This document shows, piece after piece, positions 2,771-22,569 of a stretch of 64,000 bases of DNA. The stretch is taken from the IMG/VR virus record IMGVR_UViG_3300021197_001928, positions 1 to 64,000 of that record; one strand, given 5' to 3'. The translations under genes were made by a program, and so were the position numbers. This DNA is from a virus. Under the pieces are notes generated by a model that did not search any database, had not been told where the DNA came from, and worked only from the letters and a program-made list of their open reading frames with translations. How positions within the stretch are numbered: position 1 is the first letter of the stretch; every line of letters starts with the position of its first letter.

Positions 2771-3049
2771 TTATTCACCATATTGCATTATATAGGCTAG
2801 AGCGTTAGGGTCGCCTTCCATTGCGGCTTGCTCTAGTGCAGCAAGTTTTCTCTTCATTGCTTCTTCTTTAGAAAACTGTGGCATGTGCTTATCTTTTTGT
2901 GTCTTCATATCATGTTCACCTTCATAAGCTTCTTCGTTCATATAACCTTCTTCGTTCATATAACCTTGCTCATTCATATGGTCCATCTCATACATAGAGT
3001 TCATCTCTTTGATAATCATCTTTTTTAATTTTTCTGTTGTTAGTTTCAT
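2771..3049 (-). CDS. Small acidic protein with shared N-terminal leader (MKLTTEKLKKMIIKEM)
   Basis: 92 aa with internal (GY)MNE repeats; leader shared with five other ORFs in the window. Confidence 0.7.
   Translation of the reverse strand: MKLTTEKLKKMIIKEMNSMYEMDHMNEQGYMNEEGYMNEEAYEGEHDMKTQKDKHMPQFSKEEAMKRKLAALEQAAMEGDPNALAYIMQYGE
2930..2983. repeat. 18-bp in-frame tandem repeat (2 exact copies plus 1 degenerate) encoding GYMNEE
   Basis: ttcttcgttcatataacc at 2930 and 2948, with a degenerate copy following. Confidence 0.8.
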
Positions 3050-3100
3050 TTTATTATATTCCTTTTTATTTTTTATTGATACCGGCGCTACCGGCTTGAG

Positions 3101-3154
3101 TCAGCTACCGCTGCAACAACGTCTAACAGGTTGTAACATCCATTTTTTAGTCAT
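3101..3154 (-). CDS. 17-aa peptide MTKKWMLQPVRRCCSGS (not in ORF track)
   Basis: ATG overlaps the end of the upstream gene, GGAG upstream; ends in TGA that is in frame with ORF 2771..3049. Confidence 0.45.
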   Translation of the reverse strand: MTKKWMLQPVRRCCSGS

Positions 3155-3458
3155 CTTTAGCTCCAAGTTGTATGCCGTCATCCTTAACAACCATCGAAAG
3201 CAGGTAAGATGTTCCAGCAGAAAGCCAACCGCATATAAAAAAGTTAGCGATTGTATAATCAAATGTAAATAGTTCGGTTCCAGCGTTTATGACAAAAAGC
3301 AAACAACCAACCCAAAATCCTATACAAAGAGGGCAATGGAATAGAGTATTCCACTTTTTTGTATAATCTTTTTCAGGTCTTAAGTCTTCGAAAATCTTGC
3401 CGTAGACCAAAATAAAGGTCAAGCCATAAGAGGCAAGTACAAAGTAAAGTAATTCCAT
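3147..3458 (-). CDS. DUF1360-like membrane protein
   Basis: Three hydrophobic segments and LFHCPLCIGFWVG (CxxC-xx-FW) motif. Confidence 0.65.
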   Translation of the reverse strand: MELLYFVLASYGLTFILVYGKIFEDLRPEKDYTKKWNTLFHCPLCIGFWVGCLLFVINAGTELFTFDYTIANFFICGWLSAGTSYLLSMVVKDDGIQLGAKDD

Positions 3459-3510
3459 TAAATCTCCAATTTTCTTCGTTAAACTTAAACAGGTAAATCA
3501 TTTATACTGC

Positions 3511-3927
3511 TTATGCTTCTTTGAAACTTGACGGCATTAAATCTACACCAAATTTCTTTGCTAGCTTAACCAAAACAGCGACAGCAATACCTCCACCGGG
3601 CAAAGCGACGATTCCTAATAAGAAGCTGCCCAAAAAGATGTCTTTTATTTGTTCTTTTATAAAGCTAACCTCTTCAGCGCCTAACTTGACTCCTCTCATC
3701 ATTTTTGCAAGAAGTCTAACGCCTTCCTTTGTCTCGGACATTTCTTGTTTAAATTTTCGAAAAAACTCTTTCATGCCTTGAATTCCGGCTTTTCCTTTTT
3801 TCTTAGCCCAGCCCAAAGCATCTTGAATCATTCCCTCTTCAATCAGAATTCGTTCTTGTTCATTAAGCATTTCGTAATTAGCCTCTTTAATAAACCCACG
3901 CCAGTTTTCAAAAATTAGATCTTTCAT
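3511..3927 (-). CDS. LETM1-like domain protein
   Basis: C-terminal ...QIKDI....LLGIVALPGG........L......LMPSSF resembles short bacterial/phage LETM1-like proteins; N-terminus MKDLIFENWRGFIKE. Confidence 0.5.
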   Translation of the reverse strand: MKDLIFENWRGFIKEANYEMLNEQERILIEEGMIQDALGWAKKKGKAGIQGMKEFFRKFKQEMSETKEGVRLLAKMMRGVKLGAEEVSFIKEQIKDIFLGSFLLGIVALPGGGIAVAVLVKLAKKFGVDLMPSSFKEA

Positions 3928-4571
3928 TAGTAAGTATATCTCCCATAATAATAAGGAGAGAACATTCCATTTTGTTGTATACCGCCTTTTTCGTCTTCGT
4001 GCGGTATTTCTCCCAATTCTGTTGAATATTCGTCATCCGGATCCAGCAAGTGATCGTCCATCATCTCTTCGTGCGCTTCACTTGATTTAGAATAAGGCTG
4101 CTCGGTGGTTATCCATTCGCTAATTTGCAATAAAATATAGTCAATAGACTCTGGTTGCTTGTCTCCTTTCATTTCAAGCATCAATCCCTCCATTGAGCCA
4201 TACACGCTACCGCCTTGGATCGAGTCGTATGCAACAACCCCTTGTCTTCTAAGATGTGTAAAAAGTCTATTTTCGGCACCGTAAACAACGTCGGACATCA
4301 TGTCCTTTGCAAAGGCTACAATTTTCTTTTTTTCTGTCAAAACCATAATATCGATGTCGCTGTGGTCGAAAATCATAAGATCTCCGTTCAAAGCACGTCT
4401 AACTCTAAGTTTAAATTCAAATTTTTGTTTTGTTGGATCATGCACATGCACACGAAGAGGTGGCTCGGCCACTTTAACCTTCAGTGAGTTATCTACATAA
4501 ACAGGAATTTTATCCTCTGGTTTAATGTTAACTCCTAGTTCTTTTTCTCTATCAATATTAATTGTCGGCAT
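3927..4571 (-). CDS. Hypothetical protein
   Basis: 214-aa ORF coupled in the head operon. Confidence 0.7.
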   Translation of the reverse strand: MPTINIDREKELGVNIKPEDKIPVYVDNSLKVKVAEPPLRVHVHDPTKQKFEFKLRVRRALNGDLMIFDHSDIDIMVLTEKKKIVAFAKDMMSDVVYGAENRLFTHLRRQGVVAYDSIQGGSVYGSMEGLMLEMKGDKQPESIDYILLQISEWITTEQPYSKSSEAHEEMMDDHLLDPDDEYSTELGEIPHEDEKGGIQQNGMFSPYYYGRYTY

Positions 4572-5389
4572 TACTTTTTGACCTCTTCAACTAAATCTTG
4601 TATATAAAAAACATCCTTGACTAGTTGTTCTGTTATTGGGTTATTTGAAAAAGACTCTAACTTATCACAAACACGCTCTAATTTAGACAATAAGGCACCA
4701 TTTTTAGAGTTTTTTTGTGTTTCGGTAAGTAGACCTATCTCATTTTTAAGTCTCGAAATTTCCTCGTTTAAGAACGATTTAAGGCCAAGCCCATTATCAG
4801 AAAATGACACGATATAATTAGTCAATAAATCTTTTTGCTCTTTTCTCAAGGACCTTTCATAAGTTTCATTGAATTTATTAACAAAAGTTCTGTACGTCAG
4901 GTTGTCAATGTGTTTCATTTCTTCCTTAATTAATTTTTGCCTTGTTAACAATTTAATTAATTTGGTTTCAATTATCAATCTAGATTTAGCTTTCAATTTA
5001 GAATCAAAAAATGTACCGATTGAAGCAATGTCTTTATAATTTGATAAGAAATTAGCAAAAGCCGATGGAGATAGTGTCTCGTTTATATTTTTTATTAAGA
5101 TCGTTTGTTGATTAAAGACTTCTTTTCGATCCAAATCATGAAAATCTTTACGAGTTTCAGTCAAAAACCTTTGTGCAAACTCTTTTGACATCTTTTTTGA
5201 TTCTAAAATCGACCGATACACTTCCAGATCCTGTCTAAGAGTGGACCCTTTGCAAAAAAACTCTTTCAAGATTAGCAATATTTTGCTTTTTTTCTGATGT
5301 TGTTCTCTTACTACTGATTTTGTGAGTTCTTTAATTAAAGACTCGTAAAGAAAAGCGGTATTTCTTTTCTTATTGTGTTTCATCTTCAT
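4571..5389 (-). CDS. Hypothetical helical protein downstream of portal
   Basis: 272 aa, MKMKHNKKRNTAFLYESL; overlaps the portal stop. Confidence 0.7.
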   Translation of the reverse strand: MKMKHNKKRNTAFLYESLIKELTKSVVREQHQKKSKILLILKEFFCKGSTLRQDLEVYRSILESKKMSKEFAQRFLTETRKDFHDLDRKEVFNQQTILIKNINETLSPSAFANFLSNYKDIASIGTFFDSKLKAKSRLIIETKLIKLLTRQKLIKEEMKHIDNLTYRTFVNKFNETYERSLRKEQKDLLTNYIVSFSDNGLGLKSFLNEEISRLKNEIGLLTETQKNSKNGALLSKLERVCDKLESFSNNPITEQLVKDVFYIQDLVEEVKK

Positions 5390-7379
5390 TTTGCTTCCTC
5401 TTTATGTTTGTTTGTAACCCTTCTAATAAAACAGAAATTTCATCTTTCATATTAAATAGTTTGTCTTCTTCAATAACGTGTGACTCCATAATTCCTTTAC
5501 CCAATTGCCGAAATTCATGAGGGTATTGTGCACCCTTATTGACTCCATCTGAGTATCCTTTCCATCTTGAGCGAAATGTATTGCCATATTCGCCTGTGGC
5601 TTGATTCTTAAATTGTTTTTTTCTTCCACCTTTGTCATATGAAGACTTATGTCGCCTGTATTGGCCTCTCTTTCTAGACTTGGCTGCGTCTGGCTGTACC
5701 CAAACAGAATCATCACGCTTGGCTGGTGCGGCTAATAGGGTTTCGTCTTCTCCACCACCCGCTCCTGCGCCGGCCTCTTCGTCTCCGCCTAAATCAAGAT
5801 CTCCGCCGCCTGCATCATCATCGGTATCTCCAAGACCGCCCAGATCTCCGAGGTCTCCGCCACCAGCGTCACCGCCAAGGTCTAATCCACCACCGGCATC
5901 TCCACCTGCTGCCCCGCCGGCTGCTGCGGCCTCAAGGCTAGCCATGAATTTTTTATCAAAGTACATTTCTCTTTGCATTCTAAGAAACTCATCTTCTGAT
6001 ATTCCAAGCATGTTTTCCGCAACCCAACGCTTTGAGAAATAGTTTTCTGTTGCTGCGCCTGCTGCTTCAAATTTAACTTTCCAGTGCTCTAATTCTTGAA
6101 GCTCTGCTATTTTTGAAGGATTGTTAAGCCTTAATTTAAAAGATAATAAATCATCTCCACGATAGCCAAGAGTGAACAGGTGAATAATCCCAATCTTTTC
6201 TAGCTCTGATACAATAGAGCGTTGTAGTCTTTGTATTGTTCTTGCAAACCGTATATCTTTTTGTGCAAGAGTTGTTTTATCTTCCTGAGCGCCCTCTCCC
6301 ATTACAAGATATGATTGGGGGATCTTTATAGCGGCAAATAGCTTTTCACGAAGATATTTAACGTCTTCTATTTGCCCGGTAAACTGTCCGCCTGCCATAT
6401 TTTCTATTTTGGTATTAGAGGCCCCACCACGCACAGGTACGAAATAGTCCTCTTCAATTGACAAAGGATTATAGCGAAGATCAACTCGGCCTGTCTTGGG
6501 ATCGACCACTTGATGACGCTTCATTTGTGTCATTACTTTCTGCATATATTGTTCGACATCTTGTGGGGGAATTGCACCAACATCAATATAAAACACTCTA
6601 CGCTCTGGGGAGCGAACAATACGATAAGCCATCATGGCGTCTTCGAGTAAAGTGAGTTGTCTCCAAATACGACGAGCAGGTTCAAGCACTGAAGTACCGT
6701 ATGGGTAATGTTTATCATTGCCGAGGACTCTAAAGTGTGCGACTTGCCAGTTTTCTAGTGTTAGGCCGGCTGAGTTCCATTGGAATTGCACGTAGTTAGG
6801 ATTTGAATCGTCTTCACCTTCAAGTCTTTCAATTTCTTGCTGTGGGACTCCGATACATGACTTAACACCTAGATCATCATCGAGATCCAAATATAGGAAC
6901 AAATCACCATATTTGCACATTGTTCTAGCCCAGCCAAAGAGGTTGTGTTCTATGTTCAACACATTATAATACAATGAACTTAGCACTGCTTTAATTTCTT
7001 CATTTGGGCATTTTATATTAAGCATCGGCTGTATTGAAGAATGCGTCGTTATCTCATCCGCATAAATATCAATGCTCGATGCGATGATGGGTTCATATTC
7101 CATTTCATCAAAGTCAATATATCGCTCTGAGCGGTTTCTATTAGAAATCATACTGACCGTGATAGAATTCATTGCATTGTATTCTGTCTTTTTAAATTGC
7201 TTTCCGCTTGCTGATTTAAATCTAGAAGAAAATATATCTAAATGGCGGCGCCTTAGTTGCCTACCGGTTTGCGTTCTTCTGTTGACAATCGGTCCAGAAA
7301 ACAGTTTTGTTAGTGATCTAAACAATCCAGATGTTTCGTTATATGGGTTGTTACCTTTTCTTATTTTTTTATTAGCCAT
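5370..7379 (-). CDS. Portal protein (T4 gp20-like)
   Basis: QLTLLEDAMMAYRIVRSPERRVFYIDVG, EEDYFVPVRGG, IEDVKY..KLF.A.KIP, DIRFARTIQRLQ; adjacent to terminase. Confidence 0.95.
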   Translation of the reverse strand: MANKKIRKGNNPYNETSGLFRSLTKLFSGPIVNRRTQTGRQLRRRHLDIFSSRFKSASGKQFKKTEYNAMNSITVSMISNRNRSERYIDFDEMEYEPIIASSIDIYADEITTHSSIQPMLNIKCPNEEIKAVLSSLYYNVLNIEHNLFGWARTMCKYGDLFLYLDLDDDLGVKSCIGVPQQEIERLEGEDDSNPNYVQFQWNSAGLTLENWQVAHFRVLGNDKHYPYGTSVLEPARRIWRQLTLLEDAMMAYRIVRSPERRVFYIDVGAIPPQDVEQYMQKVMTQMKRHQVVDPKTGRVDLRYNPLSIEEDYFVPVRGGASNTKIENMAGGQFTGQIEDVKYLREKLFAAIKIPQSYLVMGEGAQEDKTTLAQKDIRFARTIQRLQRSIVSELEKIGIIHLFTLGYRGDDLLSFKLRLNNPSKIAELQELEHWKVKFEAAGAATENYFSKRWVAENMLGISEDEFLRMQREMYFDKKFMASLEAAAAGGAAGGDAGGGLDLGGDAGGGDLGDLGGLGDTDDDAGGGDLDLGGDEEAGAGAGGGEDETLLAAPAKRDDSVWVQPDAAKSRKRGQYRRHKSSYDKGGRKKQFKNQATGEYGNTFRSRWKGYSDGVNKGAQYPHEFRQLGKGIMESHVIEEDKLFNMKDEISVLLEGLQTNIKRKQNEDETQ

Positions 7380-7385
7380 TTTTTA

Positions 7386-8969
7386 CTATCCTTTGTAAAT
7401 CCAAGAGTATTGCGTTAATTGTTCTTTAAAATCTTGTTGTTTTTCTTTTGTTGTCTCACTATAACCTTGCATACCTTTAATTGTTGTGTTCATGATACTA
7501 TCACTCTTATACATAGAATTTATCATTGCCTTTTTGTATTCTACCTCTCTCTTGTTTACCTGAAGAGCAGTATCCTTTACCCAACAACCGATAGCAATAG
7601 CCATAATTAAATCGTCATTGTACGACCTCATTGCTTGAGGTTTTCCGTTATTCCAGATAAAAGTTTTAAATTCGTGATATAATCTGGATGAATATGTTGT
7701 TAGCATTTTGTTTCTTACGAATTCTTCTAATTTCGCAACAACGAGGGGCCTTGTTTTTGTTGAGGTTGTAAATCCCGGGATTGCCCTTTCCATTGATTCT
7801 CCTTGGTGAGCCTCAACAAACTCATGCGTCGCCTTCATGGAATAATATAAGTTAGGATATCCAAGGTCTACAAGCTTCTCTAAAATAGAAATGCCAATGC
7901 CGTTGTTTTCGACAACCATTAAGCAGCCACCATATTCCATACCAGCATCAAATAAAATTCTAGAATACATATCTAACGTTGGCTTTCCTTGGTATTCTGC
8001 TACGATTTCCATCGTATTTAATTTTAAAATATGAAACACAGAATTATCAGCACCGTCACCACGTGCAACATCAGCAGTTAACAAATATTGATTATTGCCA
8101 TCAAATTTGCCCCATATCCAAAAGTTTCTATCATATCCTGTTCTGTATACGGGTTCTTTTATATTTCCATGAACCCACGTTAAATCATCTGGGTGTATTA
8201 CTGTATCACCGGAAGTATTAAAGTTGCACAATAACTCTTGTGCTATTTGTCTCTTTGACATATTCTTGGTCTCTTTTTCAAACCAAGCCTGATCTCTTTC
8301 GGGGTGTACGTCCCACATTAATTCAATTGGGTTAAATTCATTATCTCCGTCAACAGCACCGACATAAGTTTTATGAAACCAATTACCAGTTCCCTTTGGG
8401 GTAGATAACGCAATACAGCGACCACCGGTCGCCAATGTAGAATAAACAGCAGTCCATATGTCACTCATCTTCTCAATGTGTGCTGCCTCATCGACAACCA
8501 ATAACGACAGAGCTTCAGATCGACCGGCATCTTCCGATGTGGGTACGGCTTTAATAATCGATCCATTTGACAATTCAAAGGATGTCCTATTATCCACATC
8601 AATAGTCGCAATTTTCATCCAATCAGGTAGATTCTTCATCATGCTTTTTACTTTTTTAACTAAATTGGCCGCTGTGCTGAACTTTGTTGCTAATACAACG
8701 ATGCTCTTTTCTTTGTGAAAAAGCATAAACCAAACACAATAAGCAGCGGTAATCGTAGAGATTCCTAACTGCCTAGCTTTTAATATTACATTAAATCGAA
8801 AATCATTATAATCATTTAGCAAATCGTCTTGATAAGGGTAGGTTTTAAATTGAATTAGCCCCCTCATTGGGTGACTTATGCGACAATAATTATTAATAAA
8901 GTATGGAGCATCTTTCCCACACTTTAATATTTCTTTAACAATTTGTTTTTTTGTTAACCTGAAGGCCAT
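7386..8969 (-). CDS. Terminase large subunit (T4 gp17-like)
   Basis: Walker A-type ILKARQLGIST, Walker B LLVVDEAAH, LSTPKG; nuclease motifs DVARGDGAD, VENNGIG, NDDLIMA. Confidence 0.95.
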   Translation of the reverse strand: MAFRLTKKQIVKEILKCGKDAPYFINNYCRISHPMRGLIQFKTYPYQDDLLNDYNDFRFNVILKARQLGISTITAAYCVWFMLFHKEKSIVVLATKFSTAANLVKKVKSMMKNLPDWMKIATIDVDNRTSFELSNGSIIKAVPTSEDAGRSEALSLLVVDEAAHIEKMSDIWTAVYSTLATGGRCIALSTPKGTGNWFHKTYVGAVDGDNEFNPIELMWDVHPERDQAWFEKETKNMSKRQIAQELLCNFNTSGDTVIHPDDLTWVHGNIKEPVYRTGYDRNFWIWGKFDGNNQYLLTADVARGDGADNSVFHILKLNTMEIVAEYQGKPTLDMYSRILFDAGMEYGGCLMVVENNGIGISILEKLVDLGYPNLYYSMKATHEFVEAHQGESMERAIPGFTTSTKTRPLVVAKLEEFVRNKMLTTYSSRLYHEFKTFIWNNGKPQAMRSYNDDLIMAIAIGCWVKDTALQVNKREVEYKKAMINSMYKSDSIMNTTIKGMQGYSETTKEKQQDFKEQLTQYSWIYKG

Positions 8970-8975
8970 TATACA

Positions 8976-9527
8976 TTAGCCCTTTTTCCTTGTATCGTTC
9001 TGTGGTCTCTTGTTATTATTGCTCAATTCAAGAAATTTACGAACAACGCTATCTACTTCTCTACCTTCCGACCCTTTCCAGCCTTCATCTTCTTTAAGGC
9101 CGGATATATTATAATGCCGATAGGCTTGAACGAAAGACCTTACACGAGAAACTGATGTGGCCATAATGTGAATATCATCGACCTTAGTTAAGGTAATGCC
9201 TTTTCCTGTTATAGCTTTATATTCTTTTTGCAAGAATTTCTTAATTTCATTTAGTCTACGTTCCATTTCGTTTTCGAATCCGCCGCCATGAATTTCTTTT
9301 AGTTGAATATCCGACTGGTATTTAATGCAGATTTTGTTGCCGTAAAACTTAACTCCAAAGCCGTCCATGACCCTTTTGTCCATGATTGGGCACCCTTCTT
9401 CTCTTTGAAGTCCAACTTTTTTAGCTTCGCCATCACGAACATATCTTTCGTCATGAGAACCATCATAAGCGCTCGCAGCAGCTTGCGCCAGCCCTTGGAT
9501 AATTTCTAAAATATTTGATTCTGCCAT
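8976..9527 (-). CDS. Hypothetical protein
   Basis: 183-aa ORF with AAGGA RBS directly upstream of terminase. Confidence 0.7.
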   Translation of the reverse strand: MAESNILEIIQGLAQAAASAYDGSHDERYVRDGEAKKVGLQREEGCPIMDKRVMDGFGVKFYGNKICIKYQSDIQLKEIHGGGFENEMERRLNEIKKFLQKEYKAITGKGITLTKVDDIHIMATSVSRVRSFVQAYRHYNISGLKEDEGWKGSEGREVDSVVRKFLELSNNNKRPQNDTRKKG

Positions 9528-9545
9528 TGTTTATTTCCTTTTAAT

Positions 9546-9806
9546 TTATTTCTTTTTAGATTCTTGCATTGCGTTTCTATTCATCGCCATTTTTTTCGCT
9601 CGCTCTACATTGCCTTCGAAATTCATAGGGTCTGCGCCGTACATCTCTCTCATCAACTCTACTAGTTCTTGTTGTTTTCTTTCGTGATATCCGCCTGCAA
9701 ACCTATCTGTTTCGCCTTGATATGAAGTGGCCATCTGTGGCATTTCGCTTAGATTTTGCATTTCTTCTTTGATAATCTGCTTAAGTCTCTTATGTGTTAT
9801 TTTCAT
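9546..9806 (-). CDS. Small protein with shared N-terminal leader (MKITHKRLKQIIKEEM)
   Basis: 86 aa; member of the leader family. Confidence 0.7.
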   Translation of the reverse strand: MKITHKRLKQIIKEEMQNLSEMPQMATSYQGETDRFAGGYHERKQQELVELMREMYGADPMNFEGNVERAKKMAMNRNAMQESKKK

Positions 9807-10170: not shown

Positions 10171-10178
10171 TATTTCTC

Positions 10179-10589: not shown

Positions 10590-10610
10590 AAGACCTCCAT
10601 GTAAAGATAT

Positions 10611-10639
10611 ATTATAACATAGTTTTAGGGGCTTGTCAA
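10611..10639 (-). promoter_or_regulatory. sigma70-type promoter
   Basis: Minus strand TTGACA-17 nt-TATAAT with extended -10 TG, intergenic, upstream of ATG 10589. Confidence 0.85.
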
Positions 10640-10647
10640 GTTTTTTC

Positions 10648-11019
10648 TTAAACTTTTTTACCGTCAATATAGATGTCAATGCTGTCTAGATCGGGCTTAC
10701 CAATGTTAAACGACTCACCTTCATCAGAACCCGGACCACCAAAGTGCCCAAGCAGTTCTCTTGCCATCTTAAAGCGAGGTGCATTGTCCCAATCCCTTAT
10801 GCTAGCATTGTATCTCATTCGACTTGAATCAAAATCAACATTTCGCCCCTTATAAGTTCCTTTTATCGCCCAACCAGCTTCAGATGGAGTTACTCGAAGT
10901 TCATCTCTTTCTTCCGGATAATATCTTTGAGCCATCTCTCCATGGTCCATAGCTTCGCCTTGAAGCATGCCGAGTTCTTCTTTTATCATCTGTTTTAATT
11001 GTTTTGTTGTTAATTTCAC
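10648..11019 (-). CDS. Protein with shared N-terminal leader (MKLTTKQLKQMIKEEL)
   Basis: 123 aa, GTG start overlapping the upstream stop. Confidence 0.7.
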   Translation of the reverse strand: MKLTTKQLKQMIKEELGMLQGEAMDHGEMAQRYYPEERDELRVTPSEAGWAIKGTYKGRNVDFDSSRMRYNASIRDWDNAPRFKMARELLGHFGGPGSDEGESFNIGKPDLDSIDIYIDGKKV

Positions 11020-12071: not shown

Positions 12072-12151
12072 TAGCAACAGCCTCCCTTACAAGTGCAACC
12101 TTCACAGCATGGTGTTGTGCATTTGCATTTTTTTTCTTCTGTTTTACTCAT
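12071..12151 (-). CDS. 26-aa Cys-rich metallothionein-like peptide (not in ORF track)
   Basis: MSKTEEKKCKCTTPCCEGCTCKGGCC; GAGG RBS; ATGA overlap upstream and TAATG overlap downstream. Confidence 0.7.
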   Translation of the reverse strand: MSKTEEKKCKCTTPCCEGCTCKGGCC

Positions 12152-12498
12152 TTTTTGTTCCTCTTTTTGTTTTCCATATATTTTTGGTAATGGTCTGGCC
12201 CTTTAGTAAAGTCTGGCTTTCTACCATAAAATGGCTCTGATTTGCGTGTTTCGTATTCCTTTTCATGTCCACCTTGAGCCATACCATCTTGCATGCCTCT
12301 CTGGTATTCAGGGTCTTCCAAGATGCCTCGATCTTGCTCTCCGCTTTCTTTACCGAACCTTACCTTACTGAATCCTGCGACCCAGCCCTTGCGGTACATC
12401 GGTGTACCTTCGGGTACTTCCTGTAAAAGTTCCATTTCGGTTAGAGCCTGAAGCTCTTCTTTGATCATTTGTCTTAATCTTTCTGATGTTAGTTTCAT
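12148..12498 (-). CDS. Protein with shared N-terminal leader (MKLTSERLRQMIKEEL)
   Basis: 116 aa; member of the leader family. Confidence 0.7.
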   Translation of the reverse strand: MKLTSERLRQMIKEELQALTEMELLQEVPEGTPMYRKGWVAGFSKVRFGKESGEQDRGILEDPEYQRGMQDGMAQGGHEKEYETRKSEPFYGRKPDFTKGPDHYQKYMENKKRNKK

Positions 12499-12500
12499 TT

Positions 12501-15500
12501 TTATATCCTCACGTTAGCATAGCCATCAATTTTATTTATATCAATTGTCGTGTCAACAACATCTTTTAAGGAATCAAGATGAGAGATTAAAATTACAGTC
12601 TTGAATTGATTCTTAATCAACCTAAGCAATCTTGTAAAACCTTCCATGTGCTCTTGATCTAAAGCGGTTGCTGGCTCATCAAGTATAAATAGTTCACTCT
12701 TTGGCAAATTCGTTATTGATATTAACGCTAGGCGAATAGCCATTGAAGCAAGAGTCTTCTCTGCGCCTGAGCCCATCGAAAGTGGGCGAGGATCGTAATA
12801 TGGATGCTTTATCAAGATGTCGAGTTTGGCATCATTGGACTCAAAAAACACTTCAAAATCCACAATATTGCTCAGTATCTTGGATATTTCCTCGTTAACA
12901 AGGGGCAGCTTTTGTTTAATGATTTGATATGGTATACCGTTTGCATGCATACATTGCAAAAATAAATCGTAAGCTACCCACTCCTTTTCAACTTCTTCTA
13001 GCTCCTTGCGGCTTTCTTTCAAGTTATTTAAATTTGCTTGAGTCGAGCCCTCCTCAACAAGTATCTTAGTAATCCTATCTTGGCACTTTATAAAACTATT
13101 ATCTTTGATCTGTATTGCTTTTTCCAAATCTGACTTTTCCTTGGTTAATGCGCTTAGATTTTCAATTGCTTCACGATTTTCTTCATAAACTTGCTTTTTG
13201 TAACACAACTCTTCGTACTCTTTTTGTAGAAGATTAATTTTTGACTTATTGCCTTCAATCGATAGTTTATTCATTTCGACTGTTCTTTTGATTTTATGAA
13301 TCCCCTCTTGTAGGCTGACATGTAAATCGATATTTTGGTCAACTTCCTCGACATTTAAAGAATTTAGGCTGTCTGATAAATCTCTTTGGTGCTGCTGTAG
13401 GTGTGCAATCCTATCTGTTGTTGTTAATAAGGACTCCTTGGCTTTGTGGGCATCTTTTACAAACTTATTTTCACAACAAAAGCTACAATCCGGATCATAT
13501 TCATGATTGTCAAGCATCTTAATTTTGTTTCTCTCAACTTTTTCTTGAGATATCCAATTATCTAATGCCTGCCGGGTCTTTTTAATCTTGTGCTCAATAG
13601 CATCAGCCGAGGCCTTTTTCAGTCTTAGCTCGCCAATGTTAATTATATCAAAATCTTTAGATTTCAACTCTAGACTTTCTTCTAATTCCCAAACCTTAAA
13701 GTTAAATTCTTGAGTTTTATCTTTCAGATGTTGTTTTCTTTTTTGTATCTGTTTGATTTCGTTCGTGACCTTATCAATGTCTATTGACTCAGCAGGTATA
13801 CTGTTTATTTTGCCATCTATCAAGTCCAATTCCGACTGCAACTTCGCACGTTTAGACGTTATGTCGCCGCATCTTGCCCTTTGAGCGACCAACTCTTCTT
13901 GAATTTCCTCTAAAATTTCAATATTTTTTTGAATATCCTTATCCCATTTCTTATCTTGAAGTCTCTTGACAACTCCTTTTAGTTCTGCTGCGTCTTTCTT
14001 TGCTAGTTTAAATTTTTTATCAAATATTTCTAAATCAAGAAACTTTGCAAGAATTTCCTTACGTTTTGTCGACCCCTCTTTAACAAATGACAAAGAATCC
14101 AACTGTGATGACATAGAGGTGAGAAGAAAGTCTTCCATTGTTCCAAAGCGCTTTCTTATATTGGCGTCAGTCTCATTGCGAGTTGTACCATTCATGCTTT
14201 CGTCCTCGGAGGTCAAATGGAAATCCAAGTCAACTTTTGCTTCTTGCGTCTCTCTACCTTTATACCTTTTGGTATATTTTTCAAGATTGCGGCAAATTTT
14301 GTACCTCTTATCCCCAATGTCAATTTCAATCTTACCAATCGCCTTGGTTTTATTTTGATTTATGACGTGTACGTTTTTGCGCTCACCTTTCGAGGTTGTA
14401 TTAAACAGCGTGAATAAAATGCTGTCGATAATACTAGATTTTCCGGAATAGTTACGACCAAAGATCCCAACAAGGCCGTTGAGTTTTGAAAAGTCGATTT
14501 GATTCTTTTCACCGTAGTTGAAGAGGTTCCCCCACTCCGCTTTCCTAATTTTCCAAATAACATTTCTACTAACTTCCTCCCCTTGTTCTGCTAAAGTATT
14601 GTATTTTTTATTGTGCTCTAAAACCTTTTCGATTACATCAGATTCAAGCTCCATCCCGGCTAAATAGTTGTTAATATACTTTTCTTGCACACTAATATCA
14701 CGAAGGTTCTCTGTTAGTATGGAATTTCCGTAATTTCCTTCGTCATGCATATTCGAAGACTCTTTTCCATTTAACATAACAACAGAGTATGGGCTCCACC
14801 TCATTTCTGCGATTGCCTTTGCTTTTCTGACTTTATCAGATGGCAGGTTAGTCTTGGAAACAATTCTAAGTCTAGAATTTCTGGGTACATGGGTATCGGG
14901 CAGTTTGCCTTCTTTTGACAACCTTACAGTAATAAATGGCCTTGGATTAATTAAGTGACGTTTTAAAACGTTAAAGTTATTCTTATCTTTAATCTCCCAC
15001 AGGAGATAGCCTTTCATGGCAGATTCACTAAACTTTTGTTGAGTGGTTGAACCACAATACCACACACGACCATCGTCATCTAATTTTTGTTGCCTGTGTA
15101 TGTCGCCAAGCATTGCAAAGTCATGGTCGTTAAATATTGTTACTTCGTCATCACCCTGATCCATTGTCCAGTTAGAACCAGTTAGACAGCCGGCAATGGC
15201 TCCATGGTATAGCGCAACGTTGATTTTATTTTTATCGGTTGGCTTAATCCAGTTATCTCTATCAAAGACCGATAGTACATTAAGCACTAGGTCGCCCTCT
15301 ACCCTTGTTTCTCCGCTGTTTTTCAACAAATGGAGGTTAGGGTGCTTTAAAGCGTTTACGATTGGCGTAACAGCGTCCTGTCGGCTGTCATTCTTAAGAT
15401 TCCCATCATGGTTCCCAAGGATAATATATGTCGGTGCAATGTTTGCCAAAGATGATAAAAACTCAGCACATAATTGAAAGTATTCAGGGCTGAGTTGTGT

Positions 15501-15650
15501 TTTGGTGTGTGCAAGGTCTCCACAGTGGACAATACAGTCCGGAGAGTCGTTTGCCAGTTTCTCATAGAGATCACGAAACGCAATGCGATATTCATCGTGA
15601 TACTTTAAATTTCTTATATGTGTGTCTGCTATATGTGCTATCTTATACAT
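12501..15650 (-). CDS. Fused SbcD/Mre11 nuclease - SbcC/Rad50 ATPase (gp47-gp46-like)
   Basis: Phosphoesterase motifs HIADTH, GDL, GNHD, LGDIH; Walker A GRNYSGKSS; coiled coil with CSFC hook; signature SGAE, Walker B FILDEP, ISH. Confidence 0.92.
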   Translation of the reverse strand: MYKIAHIADTHIRNLKYHDEYRIAFRDLYEKLANDSPDCIVHCGDLAHTKTQLSPEYFQLCAEFLSSLANIAPTYIILGNHDGNLKNDSRQDAVTPIVNALKHPNLHLLKNSGETRVEGDLVLNVLSVFDRDNWIKPTDKNKINVALYHGAIAGCLTGSNWTMDQGDDEVTIFNDHDFAMLGDIHRQQKLDDDGRVWYCGSTTQQKFSESAMKGYLLWEIKDKNNFNVLKRHLINPRPFITVRLSKEGKLPDTHVPRNSRLRIVSKTNLPSDKVRKAKAIAEMRWSPYSVVMLNGKESSNMHDEGNYGNSILTENLRDISVQEKYINNYLAGMELESDVIEKVLEHNKKYNTLAEQGEEVSRNVIWKIRKAEWGNLFNYGEKNQIDFSKLNGLVGIFGRNYSGKSSIIDSILFTLFNTTSKGERKNVHVINQNKTKAIGKIEIDIGDKRYKICRNLEKYTKRYKGRETQEAKVDLDFHLTSEDESMNGTTRNETDANIRKRFGTMEDFLLTSMSSQLDSLSFVKEGSTKRKEILAKFLDLEIFDKKFKLAKKDAAELKGVVKRLQDKKWDKDIQKNIEILEEIQEELVAQRARCGDITSKRAKLQSELDLIDGKINSIPAESIDIDKVTNEIKQIQKRKQHLKDKTQEFNFKVWELEESLELKSKDFDIINIGELRLKKASADAIEHKIKKTRQALDNWISQEKVERNKIKMLDNHEYDPDCSFCCENKFVKDAHKAKESLLTTTDRIAHLQQHQRDLSDSLNSLNVEEVDQNIDLHVSLQEGIHKIKRTVEMNKLSIEGNKSKINLLQKEYEELCYKKQVYEENREAIENLSALTKEKSDLEKAIQIKDNSFIKCQDRITKILVEEGSTQANLNNLKESRKELEEVEKEWVAYDLFLQCMHANGIPYQIIKQKLPLVNEEISKILSNIVDFEVFFESNDAKLDILIKHPYYDPRPLSMGSGAEKTLASMAIRLALISITNLPKSELFILDEPATALDQEHMEGFTRLLRLIKNQFKTVILISHLDSLKDVVDTTIDINKIDGYANVRI

Positions 15651-15874
15651 TAGTCCTCCTTGATAAGTTTTTCCATAATAGTTAATGCTCTATCGATTGG
15701 ATAGAGCGCTTCTTTTAATATCTCATAATGGTCTTCGCCCTTTAATGGTGCCAGAGTCATTATTACAATCTCTCTCTTAAGTTTCTTCAATTTCATCCAG
15801 TTTCTTTCTAGATACTCTTTGTCTTTTGGGTTCATTCTTTCTCCTAATTGTTTTATTTGTGATTTGAAATTCAC
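15650..15874 (-). CDS. Hypothetical protein
   Basis: 74-aa ORF coupled at both ends. Confidence 0.55.
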   Translation of the reverse strand: MNFKSQIKQLGERMNPKDKEYLERNWMKLKKLKREIVIMTLAPLKGEDHYEILKEALYPIDRALTIMEKLIKED

Positions 15875-16134
15875 AAGTTCTCCTTCTGAATTGTTACGTA
15901 GGGCAAGGTGCCCGTTATTCCGCCAACACGATGAGGCAGATCATAATTCTTCGCAACTCTAACAACAATCTTTTTCATTATTGGTGAGTTGCCGGTGATG
16001 ATCTTCATCTCTTTGCCCCAGTTTTCGTTAATAAACTTGTGGCATTGGTATGGAGCATTTTCATAATCCACTCCGTGTAAATCTAGTTCATTCACATTAT
16101 CCTCCTTCTTTGTTGTAAAGTCTCTTGCCTTCAT
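15871..16134 (-). CDS. Stand-alone Smr (small MutS-related) domain protein
   Basis: ELDLHG and IITGNS motifs; the true start may be GTG near 16095. Confidence 0.75.
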   Translation of the reverse strand: MKARDFTTKKEDNVNELDLHGVDYENAPYQCHKFINENWGKEMKIITGNSPIMKKIVVRVAKNYDLPHRVGGITGTLPYVTIQKENL

Positions 16135-16711
16135 TCAAATACTTCTTAATTTGCTCGCTCTCTTTCTTTAGTAACACATCTCGTGATATGTCGCAAGGTA
16201 ATTTTTCGATTACTTCATAAATAAATGCTTCCTCTCCGTACTTGTCCCAGTCTTCTTGAAGTTGTTTGTTGCCGTGTCTGTTGTGTCGCAAATTCCATTT
16301 GTGATTGGCCCATCGATTTCGATATGCGGTTGATTGGCCAATATAAGTTGTTCCTGTTTTTATGTTTGTTATTTTATAGACCGCAGCAGGTTGTTGTGTA
16401 CGGCATTCTTTCTTGCGTTCATTAATTCGTTCTTTGTTTTTTTCATAGTGTTTTTTATCGTACTCTTTCTTTCGTTCTTTGTTTTTTTCATAGTATTCTT
16501 TGAGCCGTTCTTTGTTTTTTTCATAGTATTCTTTTTGTTGTTTTGAAATTCGTTCTTTGTTTTTTTCATAGTATTCTTTCACGTATCCTTTTTGTTGTTT
16601 TAAAATTCGTTCTTTGTTTTTTTCATAGTATTCTTTTTGTTGTTTTGAAATTCGTTCTTTGTTTTTTTCATACCATTTTTTATGGTATTCTCTTCTGTCT
16701 CTTTTCGTCAC
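16097..16711 (-). CDS. GIY-YIG endonuclease with N-terminal helical repeats
   Basis: AVYKITN..TG..YIGQS....RW..H...L....H.N..LQEDW.KYG...F; N-terminal YYEKNKER repeats. Confidence 0.85.
   Translation of the reverse strand: MTKRDRREYHKKWYEKNKERISKQQKEYYEKNKERILKQQKGYVKEYYEKNKERISKQQKEYYEKNKERLKEYYEKNKERKKEYDKKHYEKNKERINERKKECRTQQPAAVYKITNIKTGTTYIGQSTAYRNRWANHKWNLRHNRHGNKQLQEDWDKYGEEAFIYEVIEKLPCDISRDVLLKKESEQIKKYLNEGKRLYNKEGG
16425..16672. repeat. Imperfect in-frame tandem repeats encoding YYEKNKER(ISKQQKE)
   Basis: About six copies of the core cgttctttgtttttttcata at irregular, in-frame spacings. Confidence 0.85.
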
Positions 16712-17646: not shown

Positions 17647-18070
17647 TGTTCCTCCTGTTTTCCAATATTTTATACAAGTTGTGGTAGCTCCATTTTCTAC
17701 CACTACGATTATTGTGGTCATTTTCATTTAAATACGCAACAATCTTCGTTAATTTTGCACCACCCTTAGTCATGCTATCAACAATTCCCAATACATTTTG
17801 CTCTTCTCTAGACTCTAATAATTCTGTTCTACATTTGGATATGACATATCCATACTTTGGGTTACCTTGTATCTGACCGGCGAGACGCTTTTTTCTTAAT
17901 CCATCAATTATTAATTTTTTTGAATTTGACGCATTGCCATCTCTTCCGTGCGCTTTCATATGACATGAATGACATAGTGCGACTGTCTTTGTGCCACCTC
18001 GACTTCTTGGAACAACATGGTGCTGGTGGAGGTCTTCTGTTGTCTCGCACTCAAAACATTTATCTTCCAT
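17630..18070 (-). CDS. HNH endonuclease fused to a recombinase-type DNA-binding segment
   Basis: CFEC...HHVVPRSRGG....LCHSCHMKAH; C-terminal GNPKYGY...EQ....I...LN......GRKW. Confidence 0.75.
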   Translation of the reverse strand: MEDKCFECETTEDLHQHHVVPRSRGGTKTVALCHSCHMKAHGRDGNASNSKKLIIDGLRKKRLAGQIQGNPKYGYVISKCRTELLESREEQNVLGIVDSMTKGGAKLTKIVAYLNENDHNNRSGRKWSYHNLYKILENRRNNGRES

Positions 18071-18246
18071 TATCCCCTCCTTTTAACTGGCTTGTCCTTG
18101 ATGAACTTTGGGTGGAACGGTTGGACTATCCCGTTAGCAAAGCCAACAATGTAATGTTTACCTTTTAGTCCCACTACTATTCCCATCTCTGGGTATCTCA
18201 TTTCGAGCATTGATTTGCTCATGTACGCTAAATCACCTATTTTCAT
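18070..18246 (-). CDS. SH3/KOW-like microprotein 7 (not in ORF track)
   Basis: 58 aa MKIGDLAYMSKSMLEMRYPEMGIVVG...; GGAGG RBS. Confidence 0.7.
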   Translation of the reverse strand: MKIGDLAYMSKSMLEMRYPEMGIVVGLKGKHYIVGFANGIVQPFHPKFIKDKPVKRRG

Positions 18247-18446
18247 ACTTCCTCCAAAAAAAACCTATTTAAAATTATTGTGTCGGTTCCGAATGCAACA
18301 TAATAATTGTCTCCATGTACTGATAAGATAACACCTGCTCTATTATCTGTCAACTTTTTAATTCTTTCATAATACTTTACTGCCGTTAAAGCTCCGGGGC
18401 AGTCGGTAGATGTCATTTTAAAATAAACCAAATCACCTATTTTCAC
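18243..18446 (-). CDS. SH3/KOW-like microprotein 6
   Basis: MKIGDLVYF...AGVIL....YYVAF......FLEEV. Confidence 0.75.
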   Translation of the reverse strand: MKIGDLVYFKMTSTDCPGALTAVKYYERIKKLTDNRAGVILSVHGDNYYVAFGTDTIILNRFFLEEV

Positions 18447-18612
18447 TTATTACCTCCAATTCATATTTATAAAAAGGCCACGCTGTTATATCTCCATTTA
18501 ACATTACAGATACCATGCCAGTGTCTCCACTCCAATGCATAGCAATCACTATACCATACCCATTATCTCTCATGGTTTTCTTTTTAATCTTTACTAAATC
18601 TCCTATTTTCAC
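18433..18612 (-). CDS. SH3/KOW-like microprotein 5 (not in ORF track)
   Basis: 59 aa, GTG start, MKIGDLVKIKK...YGIVI...VSVML...ELEVISENR. Confidence 0.75.
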   Translation of the reverse strand: MKIGDLVKIKKKTMRDNGYGIVIAMHWSGDTGMVSVMLNGDITAWPFYKYELEVISENR

Positions 18613-18628
18613 TTATTACCTCCAATTC
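18436..18628. repeat. 27-bp direct repeat at cassette junctions
   Basis: cctattttcacttattacctccaattc is identical at 18436-18462 and 18602-18628; aaatcacctattttca also occurs at 18230 and 18430. Confidence 0.85.
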
Positions 18629-18781
18629 GTCTGCGTGAAACCATGCCGCTTCGTTATCCTCCCAAGCAACTTTTAACAGCTTCCCGTCTGGTGTTTCCAT
18701 TATTTCAATTATGATTCCTATGTGTTCATCAAACTCATAAAACTGTCTCCTGTCGAGCCAGACTAAATCACCCACTTCCAT
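18584..18781 (-). CDS. SH3/KOW-like microprotein 4
   Basis: MEVGDLVW...IGIIIEI......LKVAW......ELEVISE. Confidence 0.75.
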   Translation of the reverse strand: MEVGDLVWLDRRQFYEFDEHIGIIIEIMETPDGKLLKVAWEDNEAAWFHADELEVISENRRFSKD

Positions 18782-18935
18782 TGATCACCTCTAGGTCCTC
18801 TGCGAAGAATGAATATGAGTGCCCACTAGCAATCCAATAAACCTCTGCCCATTTAAACCTGCCGTTTATTTCTAAAATGATGCCATAGTCTTGCCATGAC
18901 GTGTTCCTAACTTTTACTAAGTCTCCAACCTTCAC
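18768..18935 (-). CDS. SH3/KOW-like microprotein 3
   Basis: Start reassigned to GTG 18935: MKVGDLVKVR...YGIILEI.....AEVYW......DLEVIN. Confidence 0.75.
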   Translation of the reverse strand: MKVGDLVKVRNTSWQDYGIILEINGRFKWAEVYWIASGHSYSFFAEDLEVINGSG

Positions 18936-19135
18936 TTTACCACCTCCAACATAGTGACTTTGTATAATTCGTGCTCTCCATTGTCCCACAAGACCCAAAC
19001 ATATTCAATACACTGGTCAATGTTACGTGGGGAATGATATTCAATTCTTGAAGTTGTAACTCCGTATGTAACCTCTAATGAGTACTTGTTTCTAACCAGA
19101 GCACCTTCTTTAATAAAACTAACTGGTCTTTTCAC
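18932..19135 (-). CDS. SH3/KOW-like microprotein 2
   Basis: IKEGALVR...YGV....VWVLW......MLEVVK. Confidence 0.7.
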   Translation of the reverse strand: MKRPVSFIKEGALVRNKYSLEVTYGVTTSRIEYHSPRNIDQCIEYVWVLWDNGEHELYKVTMLEVVK

Positions 19136-19298
19136 GTATAACCTCCAAGTGGTTAACTGGTTCTAAATAGATGTGCTCTGACCCAAACCAGAGTACACCT
19201 ACAAGATATTCGCTGACCACCTCTATAATTATACCATATTCTTTGGAGAAATACAATGGCAAGTCTGGTTTCCACGTGACAAGATCACCTATGCACAT
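19119..19298 (-). CDS. SH3/KOW-like microprotein 1 (not in ORF track)
   Basis: 59 aa MCIGDLVTWK...YGIIIEV....VGVLWF......HLEVIRE; overlaps the uvsE stop. Confidence 0.7.
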   Translation of the reverse strand: MCIGDLVTWKPDLPLYFSKEYGIIIEVVSEYLVGVLWFGSEHIYLEPVNHLEVIREKTS

Positions 19299-20206: not shown

Positions 20207-20228
20207 ATTGACCTCCGATGTTAATATC

Positions 20229-20256
20229 AATATAACCTATTAGAAAAATTTGTCAA
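20229..20256 (-). promoter_or_regulatory. sigma70-type promoter upstream of uvsE
   Basis: Minus strand TTGACA-16 nt-TATATT, intergenic. Confidence 0.65.
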
Positions 20257-20257
20257 G

Positions 20258-21415
20258 TTATTTCATTGACTTTGAGCCACGACATTTCCACTTCTTTCTT
20301 GAAAGGGCGTTAGCGCAGGGAGGGTTCTTGCATTTTTTTATTTTTGCTGATCTTGCACAATAGGCATCGCCCTTCTTTGTTCCGGGACGAATTCTATCTC
20401 CGCCTCCTTTGGCTTGCCCTTTCTGCCCAAATGACCGACACTTACCGTCAACTCTTTTAGCGAAACGCTTTCCCTTTGATGGCTTACATGCTTTCTTTTT
20501 TCGTTGGCGCTTTGAGCCTTTCTTTTCTTCAAGTTCGTCTTCTTTAATAATATCGATTTCTCCCTTATCATCAAGGATATAATCTTTGTCTTTGTGTTGT
20601 CCCACGTCGGGCATAGCATCTAAAGTCTTTTTGATCTCATCTTCCATCCCCTTGCCAATGGCTTTTACAAATGGATCCATACCAGATGCCCCACCTTCGT
20701 CTTTTAAAACCTTTCGCAACGCAGCAGGATCAACATGTGTGTATCCTTTCTTGGCTAGTCCTTCATGATCTTCAACCTTATTAGCTTTAACCTTCTTGTT
20801 GCTTTTGGGGTCATACATCATGTGTGGCTTAAAATTACTTTCTTTTAACCGATTTATACGAACCTCAACAACTCTTTTTCGGGATTCATTTTGTTTTGGT
20901 TCTGTTTTACATGCAGAAGGAGTAGGCCTACAATACGGCTTTGGATCACTAGGCTTTTCTCTAGCACATTCTTTATATCCGCCGTCGCCATCTGGGCGAT
21001 TACAATTAACCCATCCGCCTTTGGAGCCTTTTTCACCCTTGCGTTTGAACCACTTGTCTAAACGACCAGCATCTTCACTACTTTGTTTACCTTCTTTCTT
21101 GGGTTCACCTTCTTTCCAATTAGCAGCACCAACTTTACGACACTGAACAAGGCGCCCTGAAGCATATGCTGAAGGCCATGTCCCGCCTTTTCTTTTTACT
21201 GCCCCTTTGATTTTTTTGTAGCATGCGTCTTTTTTAACTTTGTCGTCTTCGTTCAATCCTTCGTCTGCTTTGACGCAATTTCGATATGTTTTGCCATACA
21301 TTTCTTTGGTTTTACGAGTTGGGTGTGTCTTATATCCCTTTTCACAACGCTCATCAAGAATCACTTCAAGTTCCTCTTGAATAATTTGCTGTAGTTGTTC
21401 TATTGTAAAATTCAT
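20258..21415 (-). CDS. Basic, Cys-rich modular protein with shared N-terminal leader (MNFTIEQLQQIIQEEL)
   Basis: 385 aa string of short modules (C.KGY...NCVK; DACY..WPSAYASG.LVQCR; FKPHMMYDPK; SFGQKG...YCARS) separated by xxE sites. Confidence 0.7.
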   Translation of the reverse strand: MNFTIEQLQQIIQEELEVILDERCEKGYKTHPTRKTKEMYGKTYRNCVKADEGLNEDDKVKKDACYKKIKGAVKRKGGTWPSAYASGRLVQCRKVGAANWKEGEPKKEGKQSSEDAGRLDKWFKRKGEKGSKGGWVNCNRPDGDGGYKECAREKPSDPKPYCRPTPSACKTEPKQNESRKRVVEVRINRLKESNFKPHMMYDPKSNKKVKANKVEDHEGLAKKGYTHVDPAALRKVLKDEGGASGMDPFVKAIGKGMEDEIKKTLDAMPDVGQHKDKDYILDDKGEIDIIKEDELEEKKGSKRQRKKKACKPSKGKRFAKRVDGKCRSFGQKGQAKGGGDRIRPGTKKGDAYCARSAKIKKCKNPPCANALSRKKWKCRGSKSMK

Positions 21416-22569
21416 TTGTTTCTCCTCTTTGATGCTTTTTCTTGAATATTGGTTACGTCTGTTCCGTATTTGGTTGGCTTAGTGTGATCTTCACGAAACA
21501 AACCCACATCAACAATAACAATGTCTTTTGTTCCCGGCCTTACAAGGACATTTCTATCGTGCATATCATACGCATCGATGCCTACTTTATTTTTAACTTC
21601 TTCAATAGCTGCCAATAGACTCTTGGCACCGGGATAGCTAAGACCTTCAGTTTCTTTGGGGGCTCCGGGATAGTTTGGGCCACCCATACCAATTGGTGTG
21701 TAATTCCTATATGACTCAATAAAGTGCTCAACAGAAAACTCTAACTCGCTCAAAATATCATTTAGAGTAATTTTTTGTGGGTATTCTTGTAGCAACTTAA
21801 TCGAATAAGCTAAAAAGTAAAACAAAAAAGACATAGCAGCTACACCAGATTTTGCTAAATCTTCCTCAGCAACATCCATATAATCCCACAATGCAGGGCT
21901 CTTCTGTGACATTCTTGCTTTCAGTTTGTTAAACTTTTCTTGTGGGTAGATCATATTATCAAAGTTCATTGCTAAAACAACCTTCCGCAGTTCATCTCGA
22001 ACCTCATTAGGAAAACTATAGGCCATGTGATTAATAAGAATTAGCCTGCTCTTTGGCTCAACCACCATCATATTTGCTCTATAACCAATGTCCTTAAAGA
22101 CATCTAAATCTTGCAATGACACGTCAGGTCTAAACGCTCCAACTTCCCTATATCCAAACAGATCCTCAATGACTGCCTTTACATTGGGATCACTTTCTAG
22201 CAATTCCATAACAATGATTACATGTTTCCCATCCGAGGTCTTACGAATCATATCAACTCTAGGAAAGTGCTTGGCAATTAGTGGAGAATCTCTTCTGGCG
22301 TCAGAGATCATTCTGTAGATTCGTGCTTCTTTTTGTGCATGCACATCATTAGAAAGCACTTTTATAGCCCTTTCTAGGCCATCATAGCGCCAACTTCCCT
22401 TGAAAACACTCCCATATTGTCCCGAAGAAATAAATTCAACGTTTGTAAAGCCTATTTCATCAGTGGCCTTTATCATTTCATCGGGGTTCGGTGTTATTCT
22501 CGACTCATTAAATAATTTTTGCAGTTCTTCATTGATTATATGTTTTAACTGGTATTGTGTAAGATTCAT
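21412..22569 (-). CDS. Protein kinase-like protein with shared N-terminal leader
   Basis: Gly loop SGQYGSVF, AIKV lysine, helix-C Glu, VMELL, catalytic DMHDRNVLV, DVGLF (DFG-like); starts MNLTQYQLKHIINEEL (alternative GTG 22575). Confidence 0.8.
   Translation of the reverse strand: MNLTQYQLKHIINEELQKLFNESRITPNPDEMIKATDEIGFTNVEFISSGQYGSVFKGSWRYDGLERAIKVLSNDVHAQKEARIYRMISDARRDSPLIAKHFPRVDMIRKTSDGKHVIIVMELLESDPNVKAVIEDLFGYREVGAFRPDVSLQDLDVFKDIGYRANMMVVEPKSRLILINHMAYSFPNEVRDELRKVVLAMNFDNMIYPQEKFNKLKARMSQKSPALWDYMDVAEEDLAKSGVAAMSFLFYFLAYSIKLLQEYPQKITLNDILSELEFSVEHFIESYRNYTPIGMGGPNYPGAPKETEGLSYPGAKSLLAAIEEVKNKVGIDAYDMHDRNVLVRPGTKDIVIVDVGLFREDHTKPTKYGTDVTNIQEKASKRRNK

Follow-up and report, generated by a model that had tools for sequence, protein, structure and literature searches.

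Candidate capsid-targeting propeptides on unrelated proteins of an uncultured marine relative of phage T4

The stretch of DNA studied here, called the window, is the first 64 kb of the virus record IMGVR_UViG_3300021197_001928 of IMG/VR, a contig of 95,829 bp with an estimated completeness of about 53%. The initial annotation had noticed that six scattered genes between positions 2771 and 22569 begin with the same short N-terminal leader, and had suggested that this leader directs diverse proteins into the prohead. The leader matches are found only at start codons, the bodies behind them are unrelated and the codons differ synonymously between copies; therefore the observation of a shared leader is confirmed, far beyond chance. 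Together with a second leader family detected on other genes of the same contig, these sequences are probably capsid-targeting propeptides, which would represent a much enlarged and sequence-distinct variant of the head-loading signal of phage T4.

All six open reading frames (ORFs) are real genes located on the minus strand, each with a plausible Shine-Dalgarno sequence, and they start with ATG in five cases and with GTG in one. They open with MK[LI]T/MN[LF]T-x3-L-x-[QKH]-[IM]-I-x-[EK]-E-[LM]. The first one (2771..3049; 92 amino acids (aa), MKLTTEKLKKMIIKEM...MYE) is inserted into the head module, immediately upstream of the protease gene, and has no counterpart in the two complete relatives with which we compared the contig (G000), namely, G001 (186 kb, with terminal repeats) and G002 (190 kb). 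The second (9546..9806; 86 aa, MKITHKRLKQIIKEEM...LSE; 30.2 bits) is placed between conserved genes upstream of the terminase. They are followed by the GTG-started gene at 10648..11019 (123 aa; 26.4 bits) and by the gene at 12148..12498 (116 aa, LTE at residues 20-22; 27.0 bits), which is directly downstream of a fused SbcCD-like nuclease gene. The last two carry variants of the leader on bodies of 385 aa: 20258..21415 (MNFT...LDE; 15.0 bits) has a basic Cys/Lys-rich body and 21412..22569 (MNLT...FNE) a protein-kinase-like one.

When a strict regular expression for this leader (leader 1) was run on the six frames of the 95.8-kb contig, 11 matches were obtained and 11 of 11 were at a start codon on the coding strand. 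A leader-1 profile of 24 positions, made from 134 relatives, was then run on six-frame translations of G000, G001, and G002. The 27 matches above 8.9 bits all began exactly at ATG or GTG, and nothing else scored above 7.5 bits. The comparison of the first 16 residues of the 112 called genes, which requires no pattern, gave 39 pairs with a score of at least 30, versus 0 pairs for internal 16-mers. The initial annotation had proposed a profile scan of the genome and its relatives with a check of enrichment at residue 1, and it is at residue 1 that the leader was found.

The consensus of leader 1 is MKLTK-x-x-LKQIIKEEL-x-x-h-h-x-E (h, hydrophobic), after which a stretch rich in Gly, Asp, Glu, Ser, and Pro begins. 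Similarity had been thought to stop after about 16 residues. This was correct in that the bodies of the tagged proteins of the window have no mutual BLASTP similarity, but the tag itself is a 22-residue helix. The xxE site that had been reported soon after the leader was also recovered: in 86 of 131 leader-1 relatives (66%) an [LIVM]-x-E has its last residue at position 21 or 22, while further in its frequency is 1.9% per position (binomial p ~6e-89). Among curated families (Pfam-A, PHROGs) none covers the leader region, either in the 11 proteins of the contig or in 251 relatives.

The differences in codons between copies, already pointed out in the initial annotation, are synonymous at L3, L8, I12, and L16, where Leu is encoded by codons of either family and Ile by any of its three. 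These differences bear on the possibility that the conserved 5′ ends act mainly as DNA or RNA, either in recombination, as handles by which cassettes are exchanged, or in the initiation of translation, the peptide being without function. The 30 bases that encode the capsid targeting sequence (CTS) of the T4 proteins IPII and IPIII are identical, which would fit such a role, as would the existence of tandem ORFs. Many metagenomic ORFs (P0037-P0050) and the gene at 141777-142631 of G001 contain two or three in-frame copies of leader 1 in the order leader-cargo-leader-cargo; the internal copies always begin with Met and the preceding E-x-K-M resembles a translated ribosome-binding site, and these ORFs may represent cassettes that run on into each other, or genuine polyproteins of cargo that are cleaved at the tags. 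However, the amino acids stay fixed where the codons vary, their pattern is that of an amphipathic helix with an N-cap, and the motif avoidance described below sits in the protein bodies. A role at the DNA or RNA level is thus very improbable.

The second leader family, MKLLxENWxxF-[LIV]-N-E, has 14 residues and its conservation ends exactly after Glu14. It heads four genes of the contig, including 3511..3927 (minus strand) in the window and a gene for a 1,556-aa protein outside it; with the 11 leader-1 genes, this makes about 15 unrelated tagged genes in all. The top 16 matches of the leader-2 profile on the three genomes were all at a start codon. The initial annotation had considered the products of 3511..3927 and 1714..2124 as possible carriers of variant tags. 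The former, a 138-aa protein (MKDLIFENWRGFIKE) whose gene forms an insertion in the head module, clearly belongs to the leader-2 family (28.9 bits), but the latter gave no match with the leader profile and its resemblance is visual, without statistical support. The C-terminal end of the 3511-3927 protein is a strongly hydrophobic, Gly-rich segment resembling a membrane anchor, unusual for a head-loaded protein. The gene at 1714..2124 (minus strand) is conserved, codes for about 140 aa and is found directly after the protease; its N-terminus, M-x-K-x-x-LKKILKP-h-h-KECIKE, is weakly like leader 1, and it is possible that its product is a prohead core protein and a docking partner. A third N-terminus (MKVRIKKRTNELFAL...; also given as MKVRIKKRTNELFALKPPG...YNIINE) takes the place of leaders 1 and 2 on the homologues P0018-P0028 of the kinase-like protein, and may represent an additional class of tag, used in another sub-lineage.

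The tags proved to be modular. The 159 leader-1 proteins fell into 136 body clusters and the 124 leader-2 proteins into 69. It was also possible to see both tags on the same body: the kinase body of 21412-22569 is headed by leader 1 in the window and in its close homologues, and by leader 2 in P0022, L245, L248, and L249. The protein of 20258-21415 has domains in common with leader-2 proteins of other contigs. Regarding conservation, none of the 14 tagged genes of the contig that were tested had a body homologue in G001 or G002, versus 51 of 98 other genes (p = 1e-4); within the genome, the tagged genes make up the accessory part. At the level of sequence, the portable tag supposed in the initial annotation is well supported by the exclusively N-terminal position, the unrelated bodies and the swapped tags, and also by the protease-type site at its end, the S77 protease and the avoidance of the motif in mature parts, for which the evidence is given below.

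The assignment of 21412-22569 as a putative kinase rests mainly on motif residues, which are invariant in 30 homologues (the glycines of the Gly-loop, the VAIK lysine, the catalytic Asp/Asn, and DxG). In the AlphaFold model (predicted local distance difference test score of 88) residues 5-22 of the leader form a lone helix, modelled with less confidence than the kinase body, from which it is separated by coil. The top Foldseek matches were all protein kinases, with high probabilities but TM-scores of about 0.2, because of a large helical insertion. This insertion has roughly 200 residues and is located between the N-lobe and the catalytic loop. Many of the kinase homologues are about 600 aa long, with a C-terminal extension.

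The presence of a gp21 homologue, indicated in the initial annotation, was verified at 2124..2750 (minus strand), where the prohead maturation protease of the T4 gp21 family matches Peptidase_S77 (PF03420, E = 1.9e-35) and phrog_207 (E = 1.6e-62). S77 was found in 10 of 10 tagged records with a completeness of at least 66%, including 6 of 6 estimated to be complete, and was rarer in shorter fragments, as expected. In T4 the propeptide of the capsid protein gp23 has 65 residues (PMC5694885). Its maturation site LTE65|A aligns with LRE|A in G001 and G002, VSE|A in Flavobacterium phage vB_FspM_immuto, and ISE|A in Microcystis phage Mel-JY01; since the motif is kept at this aligned site, the protease of the lineage very likely keeps its aliphatic-x-Glu specificity. 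Both tags end in [LIV]-x-E, that is, in the motif of the conserved maturation site of the capsid protein of the lineage.

We counted [LIV]-x-E in the mature parts of the tagged proteins and calculated the expected number from the proteins' own composition. The observed/expected ratio was 0.88 (bootstrap confidence interval 0.81-0.95), and in 2,344 untagged proteins of the same 235 loci it was 1.17 (1.15-1.20). The motifs [LIV]-x-D, [LIV]-x-Q, and [LIV]-x-K were not depleted in the tagged proteins and were slightly higher than in the untagged ones. This avoidance, which would be expected of proteins shut in for a time with a protease of [LIV]-x-E specificity, is the strongest new evidence for head loading, and the alternative explanations leave it unexplained.

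The two leaders differ in their cargo. The proteins with leader 1 are small, with a median of 111 aa, and Pfam finds no domain in 131 of them, whereas leader-2 proteins are larger (median 195 aa) and include protein kinases, NUDIX, DUF192, ART-PolyVal ADP-ribosyltransferases, S-adenosylmethionine (SAM) lyases, and P-loop kinases, in addition to a zeta-toxin-like kinase, HAD phosphatases, and an amidase. In G001 the leader-2 cargo includes NUDIX, a nucleotidyltransferase, and a guanylate kinase. Most of the cargo of the window received no function from Pfam or PHROGs. Several of the leader-2 cargo types resemble known packaged or early-acting phage effectors, the classic case being T4 Alt.

Considering this cargo, the leaders could instead be helices that dock to some hub distinct from the prohead, which might be a phage chaperone, a target in the host or a complex for replication or nucleotide precursors, so that enzymes would be gathered in the infected cell and would not be packaged. 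The abundance of nucleotide-related enzymes behind leader 2 (NUDIX, AAA_33/17/18, guanylate kinase, nucleotidyltransferase, HAD) agrees with this proposal, and so do the acidic bodies, the location of several tagged genes in replication or recombination operons and the high number of tagged genes per genome. On the other hand, docking to such a hub does not explain why a protease motif has a fixed position at the end of both tags, why specifically [LIV]-x-E is avoided in the mature parts, or why three genomes have insertions of tagged genes around the protease. We consider it unlikely. The last point refers to the head modules of G000, G001, and G002, which are otherwise collinear and have tagged genes inserted at differing points around the protease.

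In these three genomes the sequence (A)CTATTTA(T) was found 7-60 nt upstream of structural genes (in G001 and G002, those of sheath, scaffold, and baseplate) and of some tagged genes; its positions in G000 include 1018, 4571, 25470, 43662, 54901, 74822, and 83022, among others. CTATTTA is probably the late promoter of the lineage and differs from that of T4, whose motif is TATAAATA. It is modestly commoner before tagged genes (about 8 of 49 versus about 35 of 524), a difference that we do not lean on as evidence.

The complete genome G001 contains about 12 leader-1 and 12-13 leader-2 genes, mainly in arrays at 113-148 kb. These arrays are informative with respect to another explanation, in which a modifying enzyme, such as a radical-SAM maturase, would recognize the leader, as in ribosomally synthesized and post-translationally modified peptides (RiPPs). 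One short leader on many unrelated proteins follows the logic of RiPPs, and G001 has one radical-SAM gene. Nevertheless, that gene is at 80.5 kb, far from the leader islands, and no other conserved enzyme was seen adjoining the leader arrays. Besides, Radical_SAM (PF04055) was not found in three of four complete tagged genomes, nor in G000. A radical-SAM partner for the leaders is not supported, and a RiPP-like system appears scarcely credible.

With respect to their distribution, degenerate DNA patterns detected at least 120 loci in IMG/VR for each leader, and the leader-1 profile searched against 1.84 billion representative proteins gave at least 9,290 clusters at E ≤ 0.001. The leader-1 clusters that were looked up all came from Tara, ENA, and JGI marine metagenomes and had no protein names. 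Leader 1 had no match in 185,579 prokaryote species (one genome each). The GenBank phages with leader matches were only the uncultured 484-kb record LR756508, with 12 copies, and phage immuto, with one shortened variant on the gene immuto35A_190, which begins MKKSQLRQIIKEAL. A match to Microviridae, obtained by tblastn with short leader queries, was spurious. A full-text search of the literature, using motif strings and capsid targeting in marine phages, found no description of these tags. The tag system extends over thousands of protein families in one uncultured lineage.

Several observations weigh against the capsid-targeting interpretation. The leader profiles match no phage among T4, Syn9, S-PM2, P-SSM2, HTVC008M, and Mel-JY01, and the exact tags were not found in any cultured phage with virion proteomics. 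The [LIVM]-x-E at residues 21/22 is missing from one third of the leader-1 proteins. The co-occurrence of S77 and tags, which is needed by the model, is confounded by common descent, S77 being present in every T4-like phage. The load would be large, since G001 has about 25 tagged genes, roughly 11% of its genes. Part of the cargo looks like plain nucleotide metabolism, such as guanylate kinase and HAD phosphatases, and most of it is acidic, the mature parts having a median isoelectric point (pI) of about 5, with a pI below 6 in 86 of 131 leader-1 bodies. Finally, the gene ending at 12498 is directly behind the SbcCD-like gene, and the one ending at 22569, with that ending at 21415 next to it, is behind a RuvC-like gene, and not behind a late-type motif.

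For the capsid-targeting propeptides that we favour, the following mechanism is proposed, in which we infer core docking, cleavage, packaging, and injection. The amphipathic N-terminal helix would dock the new protein onto the scaffolding core of the assembling prohead, through residues 4-22 in leader 1 (MKLTKxxLKQIIKEEL-xx-h-h-x-E) and residues 1-14 in leader 2 (MKLLxENWxxF-h-x-E). The gp21-type S77 protease would then cut after the Glu of the terminal [LIV]-x-E; the tag would exit the head, and the mature protein would stay inside and enter the host with the DNA. The tags would be interchangeable modules on accessory proteins of fast turnover, tag 1 on small ORFans and tag 2 often on enzymes (kinase, ADP-ribosyltransferase, SAM lyase, NUDIX, and P-loop kinases). 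There is, in our judgement, an even chance that the whole of a broader proposal is correct, namely, that this marine T4-like lineage uses a code of swappable address helices, of at least two and perhaps three classes, to load about one-tenth of its gene products for co-injection, the cargo comprising protein kinases, ADP-ribosyltransferases, SAM lyases, NUDIX hydrolases, and thousands of ORFans.

Nearly all the genes of the record are on the minus strand. The T4-type head module of the window contains, besides the gp21-type protease, the T4 gp20-like portal protein (5370..7379, minus strand; phrog_213, 1.8e-70) and the terminase large subunit (7386..8969, minus strand). By portal sequence, the nearest cultured relatives are Mel-JY01 (42.5% identity) and immuto (39.5%), and megablast of the region against GenBank phages gave no match. 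From the T4-type head module and these distant portal matches it follows that the phage, whose genome would have about 180 kb, is an uncultured marine virus distantly related to T4. The order of the head module, S21 included, is common to the window and Mel-JY01: a gene for ribosomal protein S21 (1508-1714, minus strand) lies between the protease region and the downstream head genes, and it is placed alike in G001, G002, and Mel-JY01.

Outside the head module, a single ORF of 1,049 aa (12501-15650, minus strand) has a Mre11/SbcD-type phosphoesterase N-terminus fused to an SbcC/Rad50-like ATPase; in T4 the SbcCD-type functions are split over two genes, 46 and 47. The SbcCD-like gene is preceded by two small ORFs (15650-16134), and a gene for a GIY-YIG-type homing endonuclease (16097-16711, minus strand) separates these from the primase gene. 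At 18070-19298 (minus strand), and also in G001 and G002, there are arrays of genes of 50-75 aa starting with MK[IV]GDLV (SH3-like). These are ordinary paralogues, whose similarity runs through the whole protein, unlike that of the leaders.

If the leaders do act in capsid targeting, sequence alone would suffice to list the proteins that uncultivated phages inject, for which purified virions and mass spectrometry are needed at present. At least 9,290 clusters of marine "dark matter" proteins would be sorted into one class, virion cargo, and many of them would become candidate effectors of host takeover in the first minutes or of anti-defence. The tags of 14 and 22 residues could be usable as portable packaging signals for protein delivery by T4-like particles of phages other than coliphages, as the T4 CTS is in T4. 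The avoidance of the protease motif provides a simple statistical test for any phage with a suspected cargo tag.

The known system closest to this proposal is the CTS of T4. The CTS of IPI, IPII, IPIII, and Alt, with its removal by gp21, was reportedly described by Mullaney and Black in 1996, and in the T4 record IPII and IPIII share MKTYQEFIAE on unrelated bodies. The CTS is a 10-residue tag on unrelated internal proteins, which docks to the scaffolding core and is removed by gp21 (PMC8442874, PMC5694885, PMC3012670), and it loads foreign proteins into heads and is then cut off (PMC8442874, PMC5694885). As in T4, the tags found here are short, stand at residue 1 of unrelated, polymorphic proteins and end in [LI]-x-E, and the S77 protease and the T4-type head module are homologous in the two systems. 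The end of leader 2, W-x-x-F-[LIV]-x-E, matches the pattern Y-Q-E-F-I-A-E, a likeness for which homology is not shown by profile. The tagged set varies between relatives, like the internal-protein loci of T-even phages, which are polymorphic. In contrast, the leader profiles A1 and A4 match nothing in the T4 genome at E ≤ 1-10, and leader 1, with its 22-residue helix, belongs to another type. Here two classes of tag occur side by side and replace each other, and some relatives have a third; instead of the handful of tagged proteins of T4 there are 15 to 25 tagged genes per genome, and protein clusters with leader 1 are counted in thousands. The internal proteins of T4 are small, highly basic, and DNA-associated, while the cargo here is mostly acidic and includes many enzymes.

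In the giant phages phiKZ, 201phi2-1, and SPN3US, ejection or inner-body proteins have long propeptides that are cut by a gp21-like protease at S/A/G-x-E, and the paralogues gp53 and gp54 have an identical N-terminus of 15 residues that was likened to a CTS by the authors (PMC5694885, PMC10052503). These phages have in common with the proposal made here that many head-internal proteins are processed by a T4-type protease. Their propeptides are different, being mostly longer than 100 residues, with no single portable consensus and with a small residue at P3, and they sit on a conserved paralogous set, whereas the tags described here are on thousands of unrelated proteins. The cargo also resembles polyvalent proteins and packaged effectors such as T4 Alt, as it includes an ART-PolyVal ADP-ribosyltransferase, protein kinases, a zeta-toxin-like kinase, and a SAM lyase, which agrees with a delivery together with the DNA; the Pfam name ART-PolyVal derives from the polyvalent-protein class. 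In polyvalent proteins, however, the domains are joined in one giant protein, and here the effectors are separate small genes with their own tags, among which in-frame tandem units occur.

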